Positions 5,187-62,545 of a DNA stretch of 64,000 bases are shown here, one piece after another. Below the pieces are notes generated by a model, which did not search any database, had not been told where the DNA came from, and worked only from the letters and a program-made list of their open reading frames with translations. Within the stretch, counting starts at the first letter, position 1, and each line of letters opens with the position of its first letter. Made by a program: the position numbers and the translations under genes. The stretch lies in the NCBI RefSeq assembly GCF_050920415.1, contig NZ_CP169309.1; one strand, written 5' to 3'. The DNA is from Escherichia coli. GTDB taxonomy: Bacteria; Pseudomonadota; Gammaproteobacteria; Enterobacterales; Enterobacteriaceae.

Positions 5187-6548
5187 ATGTTTGATAATTT
5201 AACCGATCGTTTGTCGCGCACGCTGCGCAATATCAGTGGCCGTGGACGCCTCACTGAAGACAACGTAAAAGATACGCTGCGCGAAGTGCGCATGGCGCTG
5301 CTGGAGGCGGACGTCGCCCTGCCGGTAGTGCGTGAGTTTATCAATCGCGTAAAAGAGAAAGCGGTTGGTCATGAAGTTAATAAGAGCCTGACGCCGGGGC
5401 AGGAGTTCGTCAAAATCGTCCGTAACGAACTGGTTGCGGCGATGGGCGAAGAGAACCAGACCCTGAATCTGGCTGCGCAACCGCCAGCGGTGGTACTGAT
5501 GGCGGGCCTGCAAGGTGCCGGTAAAACAACCAGCGTGGGCAAGCTCGGTAAGTTCCTGCGTGAGAAGCACAAGAAAAAAGTGCTGGTGGTTTCTGCCGAC
5601 GTTTATCGTCCGGCGGCAATCAAACAGCTGGAGACGCTGGCAGAGCAGGTGGGTGTTGATTTCTTCCCTTCTGATGTTGGTCAGAAGCCGGTTGATATCG
5701 TTAACGCGGCGCTGAAAGAAGCCAAACTGAAATTCTACGACGTGTTGCTGGTGGATACCGCCGGTCGTTTGCACGTTGACGAAGCGATGATGGACGAGAT
5801 CAAGCAGGTCCATGCATCGATTAATCCGGTTGAAACTTTGTTCGTGGTTGACGCCATGACCGGTCAGGATGCGGCCAATACGGCAAAAGCATTCAATGAA
5901 GCGTTACCGCTGACCGGTGTGGTACTGACTAAAGTCGACGGCGATGCCCGTGGCGGTGCGGCGCTCTCTATTCGTCACATTACGGGCAAACCGATCAAGT
6001 TCCTCGGTGTTGGCGAGAAAACTGAGGCGCTGGAGCCGTTCCATCCGGACCGTATCGCTTCCCGTATTCTCGGCATGGGCGACGTACTGTCGCTGATCGA
6101 AGATATCGAAAGCAAAGTTGACCGCGCGCAGGCAGAGAAATTAGCCAGCAAGCTGAAAAAAGGTGACGGCTTCGATCTCAACGACTTCCTTGAGCAACTG
6201 CGCCAGATGAAAAATATGGGCGGCATGGCTAGCCTGATGGGCAAACTGCCGGGCATGGGGCAGATCCCGGATAACGTCAAGTCGCAGATGGACGATAAAG
6301 TGCTGGTGCGTATGGAAGCCATCATCAACTCGATGACGATGAAAGAGCGCGCTAAGCCAGAAATCATCAAAGGTTCGCGTAAACGCCGTATCGCTGCCGG
6401 TTGCGGTATGCAGGTGCAGGACGTTAACCGTCTTCTGAAACAGTTCGACGACATGCAGCGCATGATGAAGAAAATGAAGAAGGGCGGAATGGCGAAGATG
6501 ATGAGAAGCATGAAAGGGATGATGCCGCCGGGATTTCCTGGTCGCTAA
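5187..6548 (+). CDS. ffh: Signal recognition particle protein Ffh
   Basis: 453-aa ORF MFDNLTDRLSRTLRNISGRGRLTEDNVKDTLREVRMALLEADV..., GTPase motifs and Met-rich C-terminal M domain. Confidence 0.97.
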   Translation: MFDNLTDRLSRTLRNISGRGRLTEDNVKDTLREVRMALLEADVALPVVREFINRVKEKAVGHEVNKSLTPGQEFVKIVRNELVAAMGEENQTLNLAAQPPAVVLMAGLQGAGKTTSVGKLGKFLREKHKKKVLVVSADVYRPAAIKQLETLAEQVGVDFFPSDVGQKPVDIVNAALKEAKLKFYDVLLVDTAGRLHVDEAMMDEIKQVHASINPVETLFVVDAMTGQDAANTAKAFNEALPLTGVVLTKVDGDARGGAALSIRHITGKPIKFLGVGEKTEALEPFHPDRIASRILGMGDVLSLIEDIESKVDRAQAEKLASKLKKGDGFDLNDFLEQLRQMKNMGGMASLMGKLPGMGQIPDNVKSQMDDKVLVRMEAIINSMTMKERAKPEIIKGSRKRRIAAGCGMQVQDVNRLLKQFDDMQRMMKKMKKGGMAKMMRSMKGMMPPGFPGR

Positions 6549-6606
6549 ATGACCTTATGCGACAGAGTTATTAACTGCTGATTGCATTTTCTCCAGAAAT
6601 CAGTAA

Positions 6607-13965: not shown

Positions 13966-15126
13966 TTATGCCGGATCGACTGGTACCACATTCTCGCTTG
14001 GGTAACAGCCCAGGACTTTCATCGAGCGAGTGATTTCACCTAGCTCTTTCAACGCCTGTTGCATTTCCGCTGATTCCAGATTGGCCTGAATATCCAGATA
14101 AAACATCTCTTCCCACGGGTTTCCGTGAATCGGGCGTGATTCCAGACGGGTCATAATCAGATTGTGGTTGCGCAGTACCAGCAACGCTTCAACCAGCGCA
14201 CCAGCTTGTTGTCCGGTCGCCATTAACAACGTCGTTTTCGCCGGAACCTGGTCAGAAACGTTAATGGCTTTACGTGCCAACACCACAAATCGGGTGAAGT
14301 TTTGTCGCTGATTCGCTTCAATATGCTCCAGTACCTGCAAACCGTACAAAGTGCCGCCAGCTTCGCTTCCCAACGCAGCAACATGCGGTGATTTTGCCTG
14401 TGCAACCTTTTCCATTGCCGCAGACGTACTTTCGGTATATTCAATCTTCCAGTGCGGATAACGATTAAGGAATTTGCTGCATTGCTGGAATGGCTGCGGA
14501 TGGCTGTAGACCGTATTAATGGTGGATAAATCAGTAGTGCCGGAGACCAACAAACAATGATCGATAGTTAACGTCATCTCGCCAACAATCGACAAACTGG
14601 TATGTTGCAGCAGATCGTAAACGTCGTTTATGGCACCGGAGCTGGTATTTTCAATCGGTACGACGGCATAGTCGGCCTGGCCGGTTTCCACCTGATTAAA
14701 AATATCGGCAAATTTGGCGCAGCCACTTTCAATGAATTGCTCAAAGTGACGCGCAGCGTACTGACGAGCGGCAAGATGTGAATAGGAGCCTTTGGGGCCG
14801 AGAAAAGCGATGCGTGCTGAGTGCGGATTAATTTTATTGAGATGTTGCTGGAGCAGTGCCTGCTGAGTTAATACGGAATCTTCAATGATGAGCTGGAACA
14901 GGCGAGTAATGTAATGGGCGTCCAGATGGTGCGCTTTACCGAGCGTAATTAATCTTTCCAGCAAATCGCGTTCGCGATCAATATCACGTACCGGGCGATG
15001 AGAGAGCAGTTTGGCTTTTCCCACCTCGACGGCCAGTTCGCGCCGCTCTGCCAGTAATGCTAATAATTTTTCATCCAGCGCGCTGATTTTCTCTCGCAGC
15101 GCCAGTAACGGGTTTTCCGATGTCAT
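13966..15126 (-). CDS. pheA: P-protein: chorismate mutase / prephenate dehydratase (PheA)
   Basis: 386-aa [42 protein letters not shown]... Confidence 0.97.
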
Positions 15127-15148
15127 AGTGTTGCCTTTTTGTTATCAA

Positions 15149-15178
15149 TAAAAAAGGCCCCCCGGTTTGGGAGGCCTT
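15149..15178 (-). terminator. pheA attenuator terminator
   Basis: Minus-strand RNA aaggccucccaaaccggggggccuu followed by U-run, between pheL stop and pheA start. Confidence 0.8.
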
Positions 15179-15224
15179 ATTGTTCGTCTTCGCATTCTGT
15201 TTCACACGACGAAACGCCTCCCAT

Positions 15225-15272
15225 TCAGGGGAAGGTAAAAAAGAATGCGAAGAAAAACGGTGTGTGTTTCAT
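15225..15272 (-). CDS. pheL: pheA leader peptide (15 aa, 7 Phe codons)
   Basis: atgaaacacacaccgtttttcttcgcattcttttttaccttcccctga = [15 protein letters not shown]; too short for the ORF track. Confidence 0.9.
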   Translation of the reverse strand: [15 protein letters not shown]

Positions 15273-15375
15273 GTTTGTTTCCTTAAGTGACTTTAGTACA
15301 GTACCCGTACTGTTTTCACGCTGTCAACAAAAAACGCGCCCGAAGGCGCGTTGGCGATACACTCAATATAAAGGA

Positions 15376-15771
<396 letters not shown>

Positions 15772-15908
15772 TCAAAATGTGTGATGGAAATCTCATAATT
15801 TTGTCACTTTTTGTCAACGAATCTTTTTTGTGAGAAATCGCAGGAAGAGGTGTTTTTTTACTTGAGGAATATCTCAAAGCGAGCCATATTTGATGAGATC
15901 GGTAGTGA

Positions 15909-16688
15909 CTAAATCGCTTCAGTTACACAACTAACAGAATAAAAAAACGGTAGCTCAAGGCTGTAATGCCAGTCAGTTAAGCAACTGACTGGCTCTTTTT
16001 TGGGGCTGTGGGGTATTTCCAGGGCCTCTCCTTTACCACTCTCGGGAAGGCCCTTTCCCTTCTTGTCGGTAATTTCACAAGTTGTCCCATACTTGCAAGA
16101 TCGCGCATCAGCTCCGGTATACGTCCCGGTGAAGCGCATGGCGTCCGTCATCGACGTCAGCAGATGGCTGGTCAGTTCCATCTGGCAGACCATTTTGACC
16201 TGCGGGTAGAGCGCCGGGGTCCCGGTATGTGTCTGGCGAGGGAAGGCTGCATCGTTCTCTGGTGTATCCGGTGTGCGCCAGAACACACCATCGATGGCCA
16301 GCAGGGTCAGGCCGCACCAGTGCGGATGCGGCGTGGCGTTATGCCAGAGCTGCGCTGTTTTCGTGAACACGCGGCGGACAGCCTCACTTCCCAGGCGCTG
16401 GCGGGCCTGAATAACGGCACTGGGGGCAACGAAGGGGCGATTGCCCGGCAGCATGATGTCCAGGCGATTCACAATCTGGTGAAGAGGTTCTTTACGCTCA
16501 AGCGCCATGCCAACAATACACCAGACCATCATTTCGAGGGGAAGACGGCGCTTGCGTAGCGTTACAGTACCTGATTCGGCAAGGCAACGAGAGATGAGTT
16601 CGGGGTCGAGGTAATCCCCCAGAGAAGTCAGTGGGTTACGCAGAGAATCGTAACGGGATACCAAATCAAGGGCCTGTCCAATGAGCAT
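15909..16688 (-). pseudogene. Truncated IS4-family transposase; N-terminal ~175 aa conserved, catalytic region lost or out of frame
   Basis: ORF MLIGQALDLVSRYDSLRNPLTSLGDYLDPELISRCLAESGTVTLRKRRLPLEMMVWCIVGMALERKEPLHQIVNRLDIMLPG... recognised as IS4 transposase N-terminus; ORF reads out through the element end. Confidence 0.75.
15952..15963. repeat. Target-site duplication, left copy
   Basis: agctcaaggctg immediately outside the IS end; identical copy at 16775-16786. Confidence 0.7.
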
Positions 16689-16773
16689 AAAAAAAATCCG
16701 GAAACGAGTGAGCGTTTCCGGATTCTTACACAGGCACTGGATCGGTCAACTGATCCTTAACTGATCGGCATTA
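15964..16773 (-). mobile_element. Internally deleted IS4-family insertion sequence (~810 bp versus ~1.4 kb full length)
   Basis: Imperfect terminal inverted repeats taatgccagtcagttaag (15964-15981) and taatgccgatcagttaag (reverse complement of 16756-16773); flanking 12-bp direct repeats; transposase fragment inside. Confidence 0.8.
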
Positions 16774-16774
16774 C

Positions 16775-16786
16775 AGCTCAAGGCTG
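16775..16786. repeat. Target-site duplication, right copy
   Basis: agctcaaggctg, identical to 15952-15963. Confidence 0.7.
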
Positions 16787-16809
16787 CCGTTTTGTGTTTC
16801 AGGTTTCTG

Positions 16810-17547
16810 TTATGTATTGCTGCTGTTTGCGGCGATGATTTTCGCTACTTTTTCAGCTTGCGCATTCATCTGCATCTGACGGTATGCATTTTCCATCAGC
16901 GGCAGCGCATCACGCGTAGCCTGGGTATCCGGATAGTCGCGCAACATGTCTTCTACGCGGTTAACGACAGCAACCCATGCACCACGTTCTGTATAGTACT
17001 CGGCAACGGAGTATTCATATTTCGCCAGACGATCTTTCAGGAATACCAGACGTTTGGTGGCATCGGTGGTGTACTGACTGTTCGGATAGCCGCGCACCAG
17101 TTTGGAAAAGTCACTAAACGCAGCTCGTGCATGTTGAGGATCGCGATCGCTACGGTCAACGCCAAAGAACCCTTGCAGCGCACTGTCATCCAGCGCCATA
17201 TTGGTCAGGCCACGCATGTACATGACATAATCGATATTCGGATGGGTCGGGTTAAGGCGAATAAAACGATCGATGGCAGCCTGTGCTAACGGCAAATCGG
17301 CGTTTTTATAGTAGGCGTAGATGAGATCCAGCTGCACCTGCTGCGAATACGGACCAAACGGATAGCGATTATCTAACGCTTCCAGTTGCGTTATTGCCTG
17401 TCTCCAGTTACCGTCCTGCAGCTTTTGTTGTGCAGTCGCGTAAATTTCATTTGGCGGATTATCAGGTACTTCTTCCTTTGACCCCGAGCAACCCGCCAAA
17501 AACAGGCTTAGTGTGGCGGCTGCCACCAGATATTTCATGCGCGTCAT
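16810..17547 (-). CDS. bamD: Outer membrane protein assembly factor BamD (YfiO), TPR lipoprotein
   Basis: 245-aa [54 protein letters not shown]... Confidence 0.95.
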
Positions 17548-19390: not shown

Positions 19391-19452
19391 CCTAAAGAAT
19401 CAAGACGATCCGGTACGCGTGATTTTCTTTTCACATTAATCTGGTCAATAAC

Positions 19453-19480
19453 CTTGAATAATTGAGGGATGACCTCATTT
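19453..19480 (+). promoter_or_regulatory. clpB: sigma32 heat-shock promoter of clpB
   Basis: CTTGAA 19453-19458, 14-bp spacer, CCTCATTT 19473-19480. Confidence 0.6.
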
Positions 19481-19519
19481 AATCTCCAGTAGCAACTTTG
19501 ATCCGTTATGGGAGGAGTT

Positions 19520-22093
19520 ATGCGTCTGGATCGTCTTACTAATAAATTCCAGCTTGCTCTTGCCGATGCCCAATCACTTGCACTCGGGCACGACAACCAA
19601 TTCATCGAACCACTTCATTTAATGAGCGCCCTGCTGAATCAGGAAGGGGGTTCGGTTAGTCCTTTATTAACATCCGCCGGCATCAATGCTGGTCAGTTGC
19701 GCACAGATATCAATCAGGCATTAAATCGTTTACCGCAGGTTGAAGGCACTGGTGGCGATGTCCAGCCCTCACAGGATCTGGTGCGCGTTCTTAATCTTTG
19801 CGACAAGCTGGCGCAAAAACGTGGTGATAACTTTATCTCGTCAGAACTGTTCGTTCTGGCGGCACTTGAGTCTCGCGGCACGCTGGCCGACATCCTGAAA
19901 GCAGCAGGGGCGACCACCGCCAACATTACTCAAGCGATTGAACAAATGCGTGGAGGTGAAAGCGTGAACGATCAAGGAGCTGAAGACCAACGTCAGGCTT
20001 TGAAAAAATACACTATCGACCTCACCGAACGAGCCGAACAAGGCAAACTCGATCCGGTGATTGGCCGTGATGAAGAAATTCGCCGTACCATTCAGGTACT
20101 GCAACGTCGTACTAAAAATAACCCGGTGCTGATTGGTGAACCAGGCGTTGGTAAAACAGCCATCGTTGAAGGTCTGGCTCAGCGTATTATCAATGGCGAA
20201 GTACCGGAAGGGCTGAAAGGCCGCCGCGTACTGGCGCTGGATATGGGCGCGCTGGTGGCCGGGGCGAAATATCGCGGTGAGTTTGAAGAACGTTTAAAAG
20301 GCGTGCTTAACGATCTCGCCAAACAGGAAGGCAACGTCATCCTGTTTATCGACGAATTACATACCATGGTCGGTGCGGGTAAAGCCGATGGCGCAATGGA
20401 TGCCGGCAACATGCTGAAACCGGCGCTGGCGCGTGGTGAATTGCACTGCGTAGGTGCCACGACGCTTGACGAATATCGCCAGTACATCGAAAAAGATGCT
20501 GCGCTGGAACGTCGTTTCCAGAAAGTGTTTGTTGCCGAGCCTTCTGTTGAAGACACCATTGCTATTCTGCGTGGCCTGAAAGAACGTTACGAACTGCACC
20601 ACCATGTGCAAATTACTGACCCGGCAATTGTTGCAGCGGCGACGTTGTCTCATCGCTACATTGCTGACCGTCAGTTGCCGGATAAAGCCATCGACCTGAT
20701 CGATGAAGCAGCATCCAGCATTCGTATGCAGATTGACTCAAAACCAGAAGAACTCGACCGACTCGATCGTCGTATCATCCAGCTCAAACTGGAACAACAG
20801 GCGTTAATGAAAGAGTCTGATGAAGCCAGTAAAAAACGCCTGGATATGCTCAACGAAGAACTGAGCGACAAAGAACGTCAGTATTCCGAGTTAGAAGAAG
20901 AGTGGAAAGCTGAGAAAGCGTCGCTTTCTGGTACGCAGACCATTAAAGCGGAACTGGAACAGGCGAAAATCGCCATTGAACAGGCTCGCCGTGTGGGTGA
21001 TCTGGCGCGGATGTCTGAACTGCAATATGGCAAAATTCCAGAACTGGAAAAGCAACTGGAAGCCGCAACGCAGCTCGAAGGCAAAACTATGCGTCTCTTG
21101 CGTAATAAAGTGACCGACGCCGAAATTGCTGAAGTGCTGGCGCGTTGGACGGGGATTCCGGTTTCTCGCATGATGGAAAGCGAGCGCGAAAAACTGCTGC
21201 GTATGGAGCAAGAACTGCACCATCGCGTTATTGGTCAGAACGAAGCGGTTGATGCGGTATCTAACGCTATTCGTCGTAGCCGTGCGGGGCTTGCGGATCC
21301 AAATCGCCCGATTGGTTCATTCCTGTTCCTTGGCCCAACTGGTGTGGGTAAAACTGAGCTTTGTAAGGCGCTGGCGAACTTTATGTTTGATAGCGACGAG
21401 GCGATGGTCCGTATCGATATGTCCGAGTTTATGGAGAAACACTCGGTGTCTCGTCTGGTTGGTGCGCCTCCGGGATATGTCGGTTATGAAGAAGGTGGCT
21501 ACCTGACCGAAGCGGTGCGTCGTCGTCCGTATTCCGTCATCCTGCTGGATGAAGTGGAAAAAGCGCATCCGGATGTCTTCAACATTCTGTTGCAGGTACT
21601 GGATGATGGACGTCTGACTGACGGGCAGGGGAGAACGGTCGACTTCCGTAATACGGTTGTCATTATGACCTCTAACCTAGGTTCCGATTTGATTCAGGAA
21701 CGCTTCGGTGAACTGGATTATGCGCACATGAAAGAGCTGGTACTCGGTGTGGTAAGCCATAACTTCCGTCCGGAATTCATTAACCGTATCGATGAAGTGG
21801 TGGTCTTCCATCCGCTGGGTGAACAGCACATTGCGTCGATTGCGCAGATTCAGTTGAAACGTCTGTACAAACGTCTGGAAGAACGTGGTTATGAAATCCA
21901 CATTTCTGACGAGGCGCTGAAACTGCTGAGCGAGAACGGTTACGATCCGGTCTATGGTGCACGTCCTCTGAAACGTGCTATCCAGCAGCAGATCGAAAAC
22001 CCGCTGGCACAGCAAATACTGTCTGGTGAATTGGTTCCGGGTAAAGTTATTCGCCTGGAAGTTAATGAAGACAGGATTGTCGCCGTCCAGTAA
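19520..22093 (+). CDS. clpB: Disaggregase ClpB (Hsp100 AAA+)
   Basis: 857 aa from ATG 19520: [39 protein letters not shown]...; two Walker A boxes GEPGVGKT and GPTGVGKT. Confidence 0.97.
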
Positions 22094-24317: not shown

Positions 24318-24501
24318 CTTGCTGGTTTGTGAGTGAAAGTCGCCGACCTTGATATCGTTAAAGATGACTTACGAGTCATGTTTAAGATATTTGCTCTTTA
24401 AAAATCTGGATCAAGCTGAAAATTGAAACACTGAACAACGAAAGTTGTTCGTGAGTCTCTCAAATTTTCGCAATCAGAAGTGAAACATCTTCGGGTTGTG
24501 A

Positions 24502-39249: not shown

Positions 39250-39450
39250 AATGCCGGGCTTAAACCCGGCACCCAACTTGTCGACGAAGTGCGTTTTGTT
39301 CATGCCGGATGCGGCGTGAACGCCTTATCCGGCCTACAAGATCGTGCAAATTCAATATATTGCATGAGCCATGTAGGCCTGATAAGCGTAGCGCATCAGG
39401 CAGTTTTGCGTTTGCCAGCACTTTTAATTCCGGGCTTAAACCCGGAATTA
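39250..39450. repeat. BIME/REP cluster: two inverted REP units bracketed by two copies of the palindrome ccgggcttaaacccgg
   Basis: Palindromes at 39253-39270 and 39428-39449; REP-like gccggatgcggcgtgaacgccttatccggcctac 39304-39337 and inverted gtaggcctgataagcgtagcgcatcaggca 39373-39402. Confidence 0.6.
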
Positions 39451-44930: not shown

Positions 44931-45886
44931 TGAAGCAACTTTGGTTTGCCATGTCATTAGTGACAGGTAGCCTGTTATTCTCTGCTAACGCCTCGGCCAC
45001 TCCCGCGTCCGGGGCGTTATTACAGCAGATGAACCTGGCCAGTCAGTCACTGAATTACGAGCTGTCATTCATCAGCATCAATAAACAGGGTGTTGAGTCT
45101 CTGCGTTATCGACATGCACGCCTCGATAACCGTCCTCTTGCACAATTGTTGCAAATGGATGGCCCGCGCCGGGAAGTGGTACAGCGCGGCAATGAAATCA
45201 GCTACTTTGAACCGGGCCTTGAACCGTTCACGCTTAATGGCGATTACATTGTTGATTCTCTGCCATCGCTCATCTATACCGATTTCAAACGCCTTTCTCC
45301 TTACTACGACTTTATCTCCGTGGGACGCACGCGTATTGCTGATCGTCTTTGCGAAGTCATTCGCGTGGTGGCCCGTGATGGCACACGCTACAGCTACATC
45401 GTGTGGATGGACACCGAATCGAAATTACCGATGCGGGTTGATCTCCTTGATCGCGATGGTGAAACGCTGGAACAATTTCGCGTGATTGCTTTTAACGTTA
45501 ATCAGGATATCAGCAGCAGTATGCAGACGCTGGCGAAAGCAAATCTGCCGCCGCTGCTTTCTGTTCCTGTAGGTGAAAAAGCTAAATTCAGCTGGACGCC
45601 AACCTGGTTGCCACAGGGGTTTAGTGAGGTTTCCAGCAGCCGACGTCCGTTACCGACGATGGACAACATGCCTATCGAATCACGTCTCTATTCCGACGGA
45701 TTATTCAGCTTCTCGGTAAACGTTAACCGCGCTACGCCATCGAGCACCGATCAGATGTTGCGCACCGGACGCAGAACCGTCAGTACAAGCGTACGTGATA
45801 ACGCCGAAATCACCATTGTCGGCGAACTGCCGCCGCAAACGGCGAAACGCATTGCCGAGAATATTAAGTTCGGGGCAGCGCAATGA
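44930..45886 (+). CDS. rseB: Sigma-E regulatory protein RseB
   Basis: 318-aa ORF with signal peptide; start overlaps rseA stop. Confidence 0.95.
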   Translation: MKQLWFAMSLVTGSLLFSANASATPASGALLQQMNLASQSLNYELSFISINKQGVESLRYRHARLDNRPLAQLLQMDGPRREVVQRGNEISYFEPGLEPFTLNGDYIVDSLPSLIYTDFKRLSPYYDFISVGRTRIADRLCEVIRVVARDGTRYSYIVWMDTESKLPMRVDLLDRDGETLEQFRVIAFNVNQDISSSMQTLAKANLPPLLSVPVGEKAKFSWTPTWLPQGFSEVSSSRRPLPTMDNMPIESRLYSDGLFSFSVNVNRATPSSTDQMLRTGRRTVSTSVRDNAEITIVGELPPQTAKRIAENIKFGAAQ

Positions 45887-46362
45887 TCAAAGAGTGGGCT
45901 ACGGTCGTCTCCTGGCAAAACGGGCAGGCGCTGGTCAGTTGTGATGTTAAAGCCTCATGCAGCAGCTGTGCTTCTCGTGTCGGTTGCGGTAGCCGCGTGC
46001 TGAATAAACTTGGCCCACAAACCACGCATACCATTGTCGTACCCTGTGATGAACCGTTAGTGCCGGGGCAAAAAGTGGAATTAGGAATCGCCGAGGGCAG
46101 CCTGCTTAGCTCCGCATTACTGGTTTATATGTCGCCGTTGGTGGGATTATTCCTCATCGCTTCGTTATTTCAGCTACTCTTTGCTTCAGATATTGCAGCA
46201 TTATGCGGTGCGATTCTCGGCGGCGTTGGTGGATTCCTGATTGCACGCGGCTACTCGCGAAAGTTTGCTGCCCGGGCGGAATGGCAACCGATCATCTTAA
46301 GCGTGGCATTGCCGCCAGGCCTTGTGCGATTTGAAACATCTTCGGAAGACGCGAGCCAGTGA
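45883..46362 (+). CDS. rseC: RseC (SoxR-reducing system family)
   Basis: 159-aa ORF; start overlaps rseB stop; last gene of rpoE operon. Confidence 0.93.
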   Translation: MIKEWATVVSWQNGQALVSCDVKASCSSCASRVGCGSRVLNKLGPQTTHTIVVPCDEPLVPGQKVELGIAEGSLLSSALLVYMSPLVGLFLIASLFQLLFASDIAALCGAILGGVGGFLIARGYSRKFAARAEWQPIILSVALPPGLVRFETSSEDASQ

Positions 46363-46559
46363 TTTCACTGGCTTTGTTGCATTTTGCATAACAAATGCGA
46401 GGACGTTTCCAGATACCACAATCCATACCGTATGAACATTTCCTCGCCTCAATGTTGTAGTGTAGAATGCGGCGTTTCTATTAATACAGACGTTAAGCTC
46501 AGAACAGCGACTTCTAAAAGCCTGGTTAACCGGGCATTAAGGCACAATAATCATACTTT

Positions 46560-48359
<1,800 letters not shown>

Positions 48360-49395: not shown

Positions 49396-49591
49396 TTATT
49401 TATGAGATAAATCTCCCGTGGCTAACGACATCCCCCGTCGTTGTGTATAGAATATTCCCCCGAAGTTTAAGGTTGGCACCTCCAGGTTGCCACGGCACAC
49501 GAAACAGCGTTGGTCCCCATATACCGGTAAACTGAAACTGCAGCGAAGCAGTTAGCAGAGCCATGTATATCAGGTCTGTTTCGTGTGCTGA

Positions 49592-51204
<1,613 letters not shown>

Positions 51205-53082: not shown

Positions 53083-53166
53083 TTTAAAAAGTAAAACCCC
53101 CGAACTGGTAAGGAACGGGGGTTTTACTTTACAACTTTAATTTTGTGCAGCACGCACCCTCAATGA
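53083..53166 (-). ncRNA. ohsC: Putative OhsC antitoxin sRNA of the shoB/ohsC type I TA pair (boundaries approximate)
   Basis: Minus-strand unit ending at a strong terminator (hairpin 53091-53127 plus T-run) and containing the reverse complement of 53145-53164, which pairs with shoB 5' UTR segment 53393-53412 (19/20 plus one G-U); candidate -10 cataat upstream on minus strand. Confidence 0.45.
53091..53127. terminator. Bidirectional terminator shared by acpS and the putative ohsC
   Basis: 11-bp stem gtaaaaccccc/gggggttttac, 15-nt loop, T-runs on both strands. Confidence 0.6.
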
Positions 53167-62361: not shown

Positions 62362-62545
62362 AGTGGCTCATTCACCGACTTATGTCAGCCCCTTCGGGAC
62401 GTGCTACATAAAATTCGAATGACGCACAACAAGGTGCCTGCCGTCCAACTTCTGATATCAGCTTAGCTATATCAACCCTCGGGCGAAACGTCGAGTTAGG
62501 CACCGCCTTATTCCATAACAAAGCCGGGTCATTCCCGGCTTTGTT
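62362..62545 (+). ncRNA. glmY: GlmY small RNA
   Basis: agtggctcattcaccgacttatgtcagccccttcgggacgtgctacataaaattcgaatgacgc... recognised as GlmY; terminator hairpin agccgggtcattcccggct 62522-62540 plus T-run; sits between purL and glrK as in K-12. Confidence 0.8.

Follow-up and report, generated by a model that had tools for sequence, protein, structure and literature searches.

Threonine at codon 4 of the pheL leader peptide in a non-K-12 Escherichia coli: apparently an ordinary strain difference

The question raised by this locus is whether a phenylalanine-operon leader peptide that departs from the K-12 sequence at one codon reflects a change in the control of pheA, or simply a difference between strains. 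The locus lies in a stretch of 64,000 nucleotides of E. coli DNA (contig NZ_CP169309.1), which we refer to in its entirety as the window, and in which an initial annotation had read a pheL gene with threonine at codon 4, as against isoleucine at this codon in K-12. Our analysis indicates that the locus is the pheL-pheA transcription attenuator of a non-K-12 E. coli, carrying the common Thr4 (ACA) form of the leader, and we give this explanation as a whole a probability of about 0.92. As judged from modelled RNA structures, the codon-4 change is apparently an ordinary, neutral strain difference.

The coordinates first given for pheL (15225-15272) stand, but the gene lies on the minus strand, which had been left unstated. 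Read on the plus strand, 15225-15272 yields no sensible peptide, and that reading was dropped as meaningless; the reverse complement yields the 15-residue PheL peptide, encoded by 15 codons and followed by a TGA stop. Minus-strand translation bears out threonine at codon 4, which is ACA at window positions 15263..15261, the variable base being 15262 (alignment column 119). The control region, codons 6-14 (15231..15257, minus strand), can be read directly as TTT TTC TTC GCA TTC TTT TTT ACC TTC, that is FFF-A-FFF-T-F, so that the seven Phe control codons are intact, as had been claimed, and are identical to those of K-12. Seven Phe among 15 codons is above the threshold used by Gurvich et al. 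(PMC3082878) for a Phe run, which is at least five Phe codons with at least two of them adjacent. The ORF ends in ACC TTC CCC TGA (15236..15225), and this places it in the UUC_CCC_UGA pheL subgroup of Gurvich et al. (2011), the UUC_CCC_UGA “shifty stop” itself occupying 15225..15233 on the minus strand.

That this short ORF is not a chance one follows from its RNA context, since the surrounding minus-strand sequence (15148..15273) matches the Phe leader/attenuator RNA of Rfam (Phe_leader, RF01859) over model positions 1-125 of 125 in cmscan, covering the whole model at 132.2 bits, with a gathering score of 55 and an E-value of 1e-24. Between pheL and pheA a terminator scan located an intrinsic terminator on the minus strand, the attenuator hairpin 3:4 (15178..15154), which is GC-rich and has 10 pairs and a 5-nt loop (AAACC), is followed by TTTTTT, and has a folding energy of -19.0 kcal/mol (ViennaRNA). 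The regulated gene, pheA (chorismate mutase/prephenate dehydratase), is a 386-aa entry in the ORF list at 13966..15126 on the same strand; it starts 98 nt past the pheL stop, and its coordinates coincide with those annotated for pheA at the K-12 locus, which is collinear. Upstream of pheL, also on the minus strand, lies raiA (15717..15376). A sigma-70 promoter scan of 15100-15420 found no promoter by the scan's criteria; the 118 bases upstream, as aligned, are identical to K-12.

Between the raiA stop and the pheA start (281 bases) the window and K-12 differ at two positions only: codon 4 and one base of the terminator loop. The sequence preceding codon 4, which takes in the raiA terminator, the promoter region and the Shine-Dalgarno sequence, is the same in both. 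MG1655 has ATA at codon 4 (WP_010723158.1), so that the isoleucine given for K-12 in the initial annotation was correct; K-12 does not share the ACA codon, and the window, having ACA and not ATA, does not carry the K-12 allele. In nucleotide sequence, pheL of Shigella flexneri 2a is identical to that of K-12 (PMC3082878, Figure 2 legend). Comparison of pheL across E. coli genomes, which the initial annotation had proposed as a check, gave ATA in K-12 and ACA in UTI89, O157:H7, B, AVS0750 and 2017-02-2CC.

To place the two alleles in the species, 61-base queries centred on the SNP were searched for exact matches against 5,426 complete E. coli genomes. The ACA (Thr) 61-mer was present in 3,560 of 5,422 genomes (66%) and the ATA (Ile, K-12) 61-mer in 1,383 (26%), while 479 (9%) had neither. 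Because the matches are exact 61-mers, and the collection is enriched in laboratory and clinical strains, these counts give bounds and not exact frequencies: 66-74% for Thr and 26-34% for Ile over the 5,422 genomes. The natural share of Ile is probably lower still, since the collection is rich in laboratory derivatives of K-12.

Three genomes were sampled from the 479 with neither 61-mer. N96 has ACG at codon 4, which is still Thr; NIPH17_0020 has ACA together with a Thr13Ile change (ACC to ATC), giving a third PheL protein allele (WP_001700969.1); and LZYWN_4 has ATA with a synonymous TTC-to-TTT change. Counted from CCC_UGA, the Thr13Ile change of NIPH17_0020 falls at -2.

The window peptide is exactly that of RefSeq WP_001386991.1, “pheA operon leader peptide PheL”, which is annotated in UTI89, O157:H7 Z852, the E. 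coli B derivative B-LamR, AVS0750 and 2017-02-2CC. Thr4 pheL is already known and is annotated in thousands of genomes. The same data refute the idea that an error in sequencing or assembly produced the Thr codon of the window: an identical 61-mer occurs in 3,560 independent complete genomes, and the peptide has a RefSeq accession of its own, leaving this explanation with a vanishingly small probability.

The direction of the change was considered by means of an outgroup scan, in which one genome per species was searched with a degenerate pheL pattern that left residues 3-4 free and held the initial MK and the last 11 residues fixed. The scan retrieved pheL from 112 enterobacterial species, a set lying outside E. 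coli, E. fergusonii, E. marmotae and Salmonella, and it speaks to residues 3-4, being silent on the conservation of those last 11 residues. At residues 3-4 the 112 species have 27 different dipeptides, and the sole MKHIP in the tabulated set belongs to the K-12 comparison locus, which is not one of the species of the scan. All four of the non-coli Escherichia that were recovered have Thr at codon 4, with codons 3-4 being CAT ACT in E. albertii, CAA ACG in E. whittamii, CAC ACA in Escherichia sp. MOD1-EC7003 and CAA ACG in Escherichia sp. E1V33. Because these four all have Thr4, the K-12 Ile is the derived state: on this sequence comparison, which draws on the four non-coli Escherichia species and on deep E. 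coli lineages, Thr is the ancestral form, and K-12 ATA would descend from it through one C-to-T transition, within a sublineage that forms the minority. The framing of the initial annotation, in which Thr was the departure, is therefore inverted, Thr being the majority and ancestral form and the Ile of K-12 the unusual one.

An observation made in passing concerns contig CACSKA010000005.1, labelled Chryseobacterium sp. 18061, which bears an enterobacterial-type pheL; a Citrobacter assembly from a similarly named isolate, 18056, has a pheL beginning MKIIP. This suggests that the assembly of the Chryseobacterium-labelled contig is mislabelled or contaminated.

Whether the identity of codon 4 could matter for attenuation depends on how the leader works. 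In the pheL-pheA model (PMC3082878) RNA polymerase pauses once the 1:2 structure has formed; a ribosome stalled on the Phe codons then frees segment 2, allowing the 2:3 antiterminator, and otherwise the 3:4 terminator forms and transcription ends at the U-run. By analogy with this mechanism, as established in K-12, a ribosome on the leader of the window would sense the supply of Phe-tRNA over 15 codons. Its stalling on the seven Phe codons would let segments 2 and 3 pair as an antiterminator, so that RNA polymerase could enter pheA, and its arrival at the stop codon would let the 3:4 terminator form and transcription stop. Phe-responsive control of pheA, and the neutrality of codon 4 in vivo, would likewise carry over from K-12.

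The RNA elements that this mechanism needs can be placed in the window by folding in silico. When the fold is constrained by a ribosome mask over the Phe codons, the segment 2 core, UGGGAGGC (15216..15223, minus strand), has segment 3 as its antiterminator partner, and segment 3, GCCUCCCA (15168..15175, minus strand; placed by the constrained folds and by the Rfam structure line), is also the 5′ arm of the terminator. Once segment 3 is present the 2:3 helix UGGGAGGC:GCCUCCCA is predicted to form, and is mutually exclusive with the terminator.

All the paired segments, and the Phe run too, lie downstream of codon 4, and for this reason the Thr/Ile difference would be a neutral polymorphism. The Rfam consensus leaves its first 15 positions unpaired; the SNP falls on position 12, and the first paired base follows 4 nt later. 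Folding of the full leader (ViennaRNA) gave one MFE structure, at -52.9 kcal/mol, for all four combinations of the codon-4 and loop alleles, and the terminator hairpin alone gave -19.0 kcal/mol for all four; the ensemble energies of ACA and ATA are 0.2 kcal/mol apart. ACA and ATA also agree in structure and energy whether codon 6, 8, 10 or 12 or the stop is taken as the masked ribosome site. The expectation that attenuation should be unaffected by the codon-4 change is thus upheld in these models, with the SNP in the unpaired 5′ region and structure and energy unchanged.

Variation at this codon is also in keeping with what has been described for the peptide. According to Gurvich et al. (PMC3082878), pheL varies among enterobacteria at all positions other than the AUG and the regulatory Phe codons, and UUC_CCC_UGA is the conserved ending of an enterobacterial pheL group, at which approximately 15% +1 frameshifting occurs in K-12. 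A Thr-to-Gly change at -2 raised this frameshifting by approximately 50%; frameshifting in pheL was judged incidental to pheA expression (PMC3082878). The features mapped as relevant to frameshifting, namely the -1 Phe, the -10 Pro and the CCC_UGA end, are unchanged in the window.

It could nevertheless be argued that the codon-4 polymorphism tunes attenuation, either because a slow ATA alters the early ribosome, its coupling to the 1:2 pause and hence basal pheA expression relative to Thr4 strains, or because residue -11 of the nascent peptide affects the stop at CCC_UGA. The one tRNA that reads ATA is the lysidine-modified tRNA-Ile2, which is of low abundance. Among 42 K-12 genes of the region ATA is the rarest Ile codon, accounting for 6.5% of Ile codons (3.8 per 1000); ACA, however, is likewise the rarest codon of its own family in these genes (12.7% of Thr codons), so that any kinetic contrast between the two would be small. 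As to the stop codon of pheL, basal pheA expression does depend on release of the ribosome at this codon, where the nascent peptide also has an influence (PMC3082878), but synonymous codon changes in pheL were without effect on frameshifting (PMC3082878). Residues 3-4 are, moreover, hypervariable among species, and the RNA folds are identical for ACA and ATA. We consider such tuning very improbable, and keep a small kinetic effect of codon choice on early elongation as a residual possibility beside the preferred reading of codon 4 as a neutral difference.

The second difference from K-12 is in the attenuator hairpin itself. This hairpin had been described as intact, which is true of its stems, with their 10 pairs and T-run, but the loop is AAACC in the window and AAAUC in K-12, a change that had been missed (C for U at 15165, minus strand; alignment column 216). 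The loop-C allele is rare, its exact 61-mer occurring in 110 of 5,423 complete E. coli genomes (approximately 2%), and one might suppose that this U-to-C change, and not codon 4, is the functional difference at the locus, weakening an extended antiterminator and so reducing read-through under Phe starvation. In K-12 the extended antiterminator is predicted to pair UCCCCUGA with UCGGGGGG, stacked on the 2:3 core, and it includes a pair between the loop U and the A of the pheL UGA stop, which is lost with C. When the ribosome is masked on Phe codons 6-10, the MFE state with U is the antiterminator at -36.8 kcal/mol, the terminator state being at -35.6, whereas with the C of the window it is the terminator state at -35.6 kcal/mol, the antiterminator (-34.8) lying 0.8 above it.

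Against a functional role for the loop base, the gap in energy is just 1.2-2 kcal/mol, and the 2:3 core helix forms identically with either allele when segment 3 has been transcribed (-23.3 kcal/mol at 134-138 nt), attenuation being decided kinetically. The energy of the terminator hairpin is not changed by the loop base, and the position varies between species, with C in E. albertii, with C, U and A all seen across the Enterobacteriaceae, and with c as the Rfam consensus at the equivalent of 15165. Because the position varies in this way, the loop change is probably neutral, and we regard a functional effect of it as unlikely.

Other lineages have changes in the leader as well. In O157:H7 Z852 an A replaces a C within segment 2 (GAAGACGAAC to GAAGAAGAAC); in E. 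coli B-LamR the G-run in the 3′ arm of the terminator is 1 nt shorter, and there is a T-to-A change just past the pheL stop (TGAATGGG to TGAAAGGG). Outside the lineage of the window, then, natural variation does extend to bases of the attenuator that are paired. A broader proposal would be that natural pheL-leader alleles set slightly different set-points of pheA attenuation among E. coli lineages, through the kinetics of ATA and through destabilisation of the extended antiterminator by loop C, modelled at 1.2-2 kcal/mol. We think this improbable; if it were true, K-12 would not be quantitatively representative of the species in its regulation of the phenylalanine operon.

With regard to the strain itself, the window runs collinear with K-12 between recN and era, at 96.2-97.6% identity (approximately 96.5%) over 50 kb. 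Over 24 kb the best match among complete genomes is N96, from a Tibetan pig (99.4%), followed by 2017-02-2CC (99.0%), and only five records reach 99%; against other Escherichia species the window is approximately 92% identical, or 95.8% over 1.4 kb in the case of Escherichia sp. MOD1-EC7003. As the best 24-kb match is only 99.4%, the lineage is poorly represented among complete genomes, and these identities point to the window being from a divergent, under-sampled lineage of E. coli.

Approximately 700 bp from pheL, between raiA and bamD, the window has an insertion of 813 bp relative to K-12 (15961-16773). An ORF at 15909..16688 on the minus strand matches Pfam Nterm_IS4 (E=1.9e-33), and because just the N-terminal part of an IS4 transposase is encoded, the insertion is by its sequence a truncated IS4 remnant. 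The arrangement, taken as at least 80% cover of 15800-16950, is found in 334 of 5,426 genomes (6%) and is 100% identical in MFDS1022581; an IS4 transposase is annotated within the 24-kb match in many other strains.

Elsewhere in the window, the ffh-rpsP gap (6549-6562) has 14 bases where K-12 has 126 (6438-6563 of the comparison locus), a difference of approximately 112 bp, possibly because K-12 alone carries a REP-type intergenic repeat there. There is one rRNA operon with a tRNA-Glu, and further Rfam matches are to RyfD (19401-19539), StyR-44 of the rrn spacer (24396-24494), ES036 (39338-39380), AsrC, antisense to rseC (45847-46678), rncO (49462-49676), ohsC (53088-53164) and GlmY (62362-62509). 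These other RNA features are all expected for this region of E. coli.

Thus the K-12 textbook leader is a minority, derived allele and Thr4 the norm of the species, so that the departure from K-12 at codon 4 does not amount to a variant of interest. As the initial annotation had proposed, the allele does exclude MG1655; it is a weak strain marker and a poor marker of lineage, because it excludes just the 26-34% or so of genomes that have ATA. Far more telling of lineage are the SNP in the terminator loop, shared by 2% of genomes, and the IS4 remnant, shared by 6%.

Set beside known systems, the locus is closest to pheL leaders already on record. In K-12 MG1655, pheL (WP_010723158.1, “phe operon leader peptide”) likewise lies between raiA and pheA and works by the same mechanism, with the same Shine-Dalgarno sequence, Phe codons, UUC_CCC_UGA end and paired segments as in the window; it differs in having ATA (Ile) in place of ACA (Thr) and a loop of AAAUC in place of AAACC. 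The WP_001386991.1 leader of UTI89, O157:H7 and E. coli B has the same 15-residue peptide as the window and the same ACA at codon 4; the UTI89 leader differs at 1 of the 281 bases, and most of these strains have U in the terminator loop, where the window has C (15165).

More widely, the short ORF, the Phe run, the -10 Pro and the CCC_UGA end of the window are those of the enterobacterial UUC_CCC_UGA pheL group (Gurvich et al. 2011, PMC3082878; RF01859), from which the window differs solely by variation at residues 3-4, of a kind already described within the group (PMC3082878). The trpL, hisL, thrL, leuL and ilvL attenuators follow the same logic, a stall on the cognate codons choosing between antiterminator and terminator, but they use other regulatory codons and belong to RNA families other than that of pheL.
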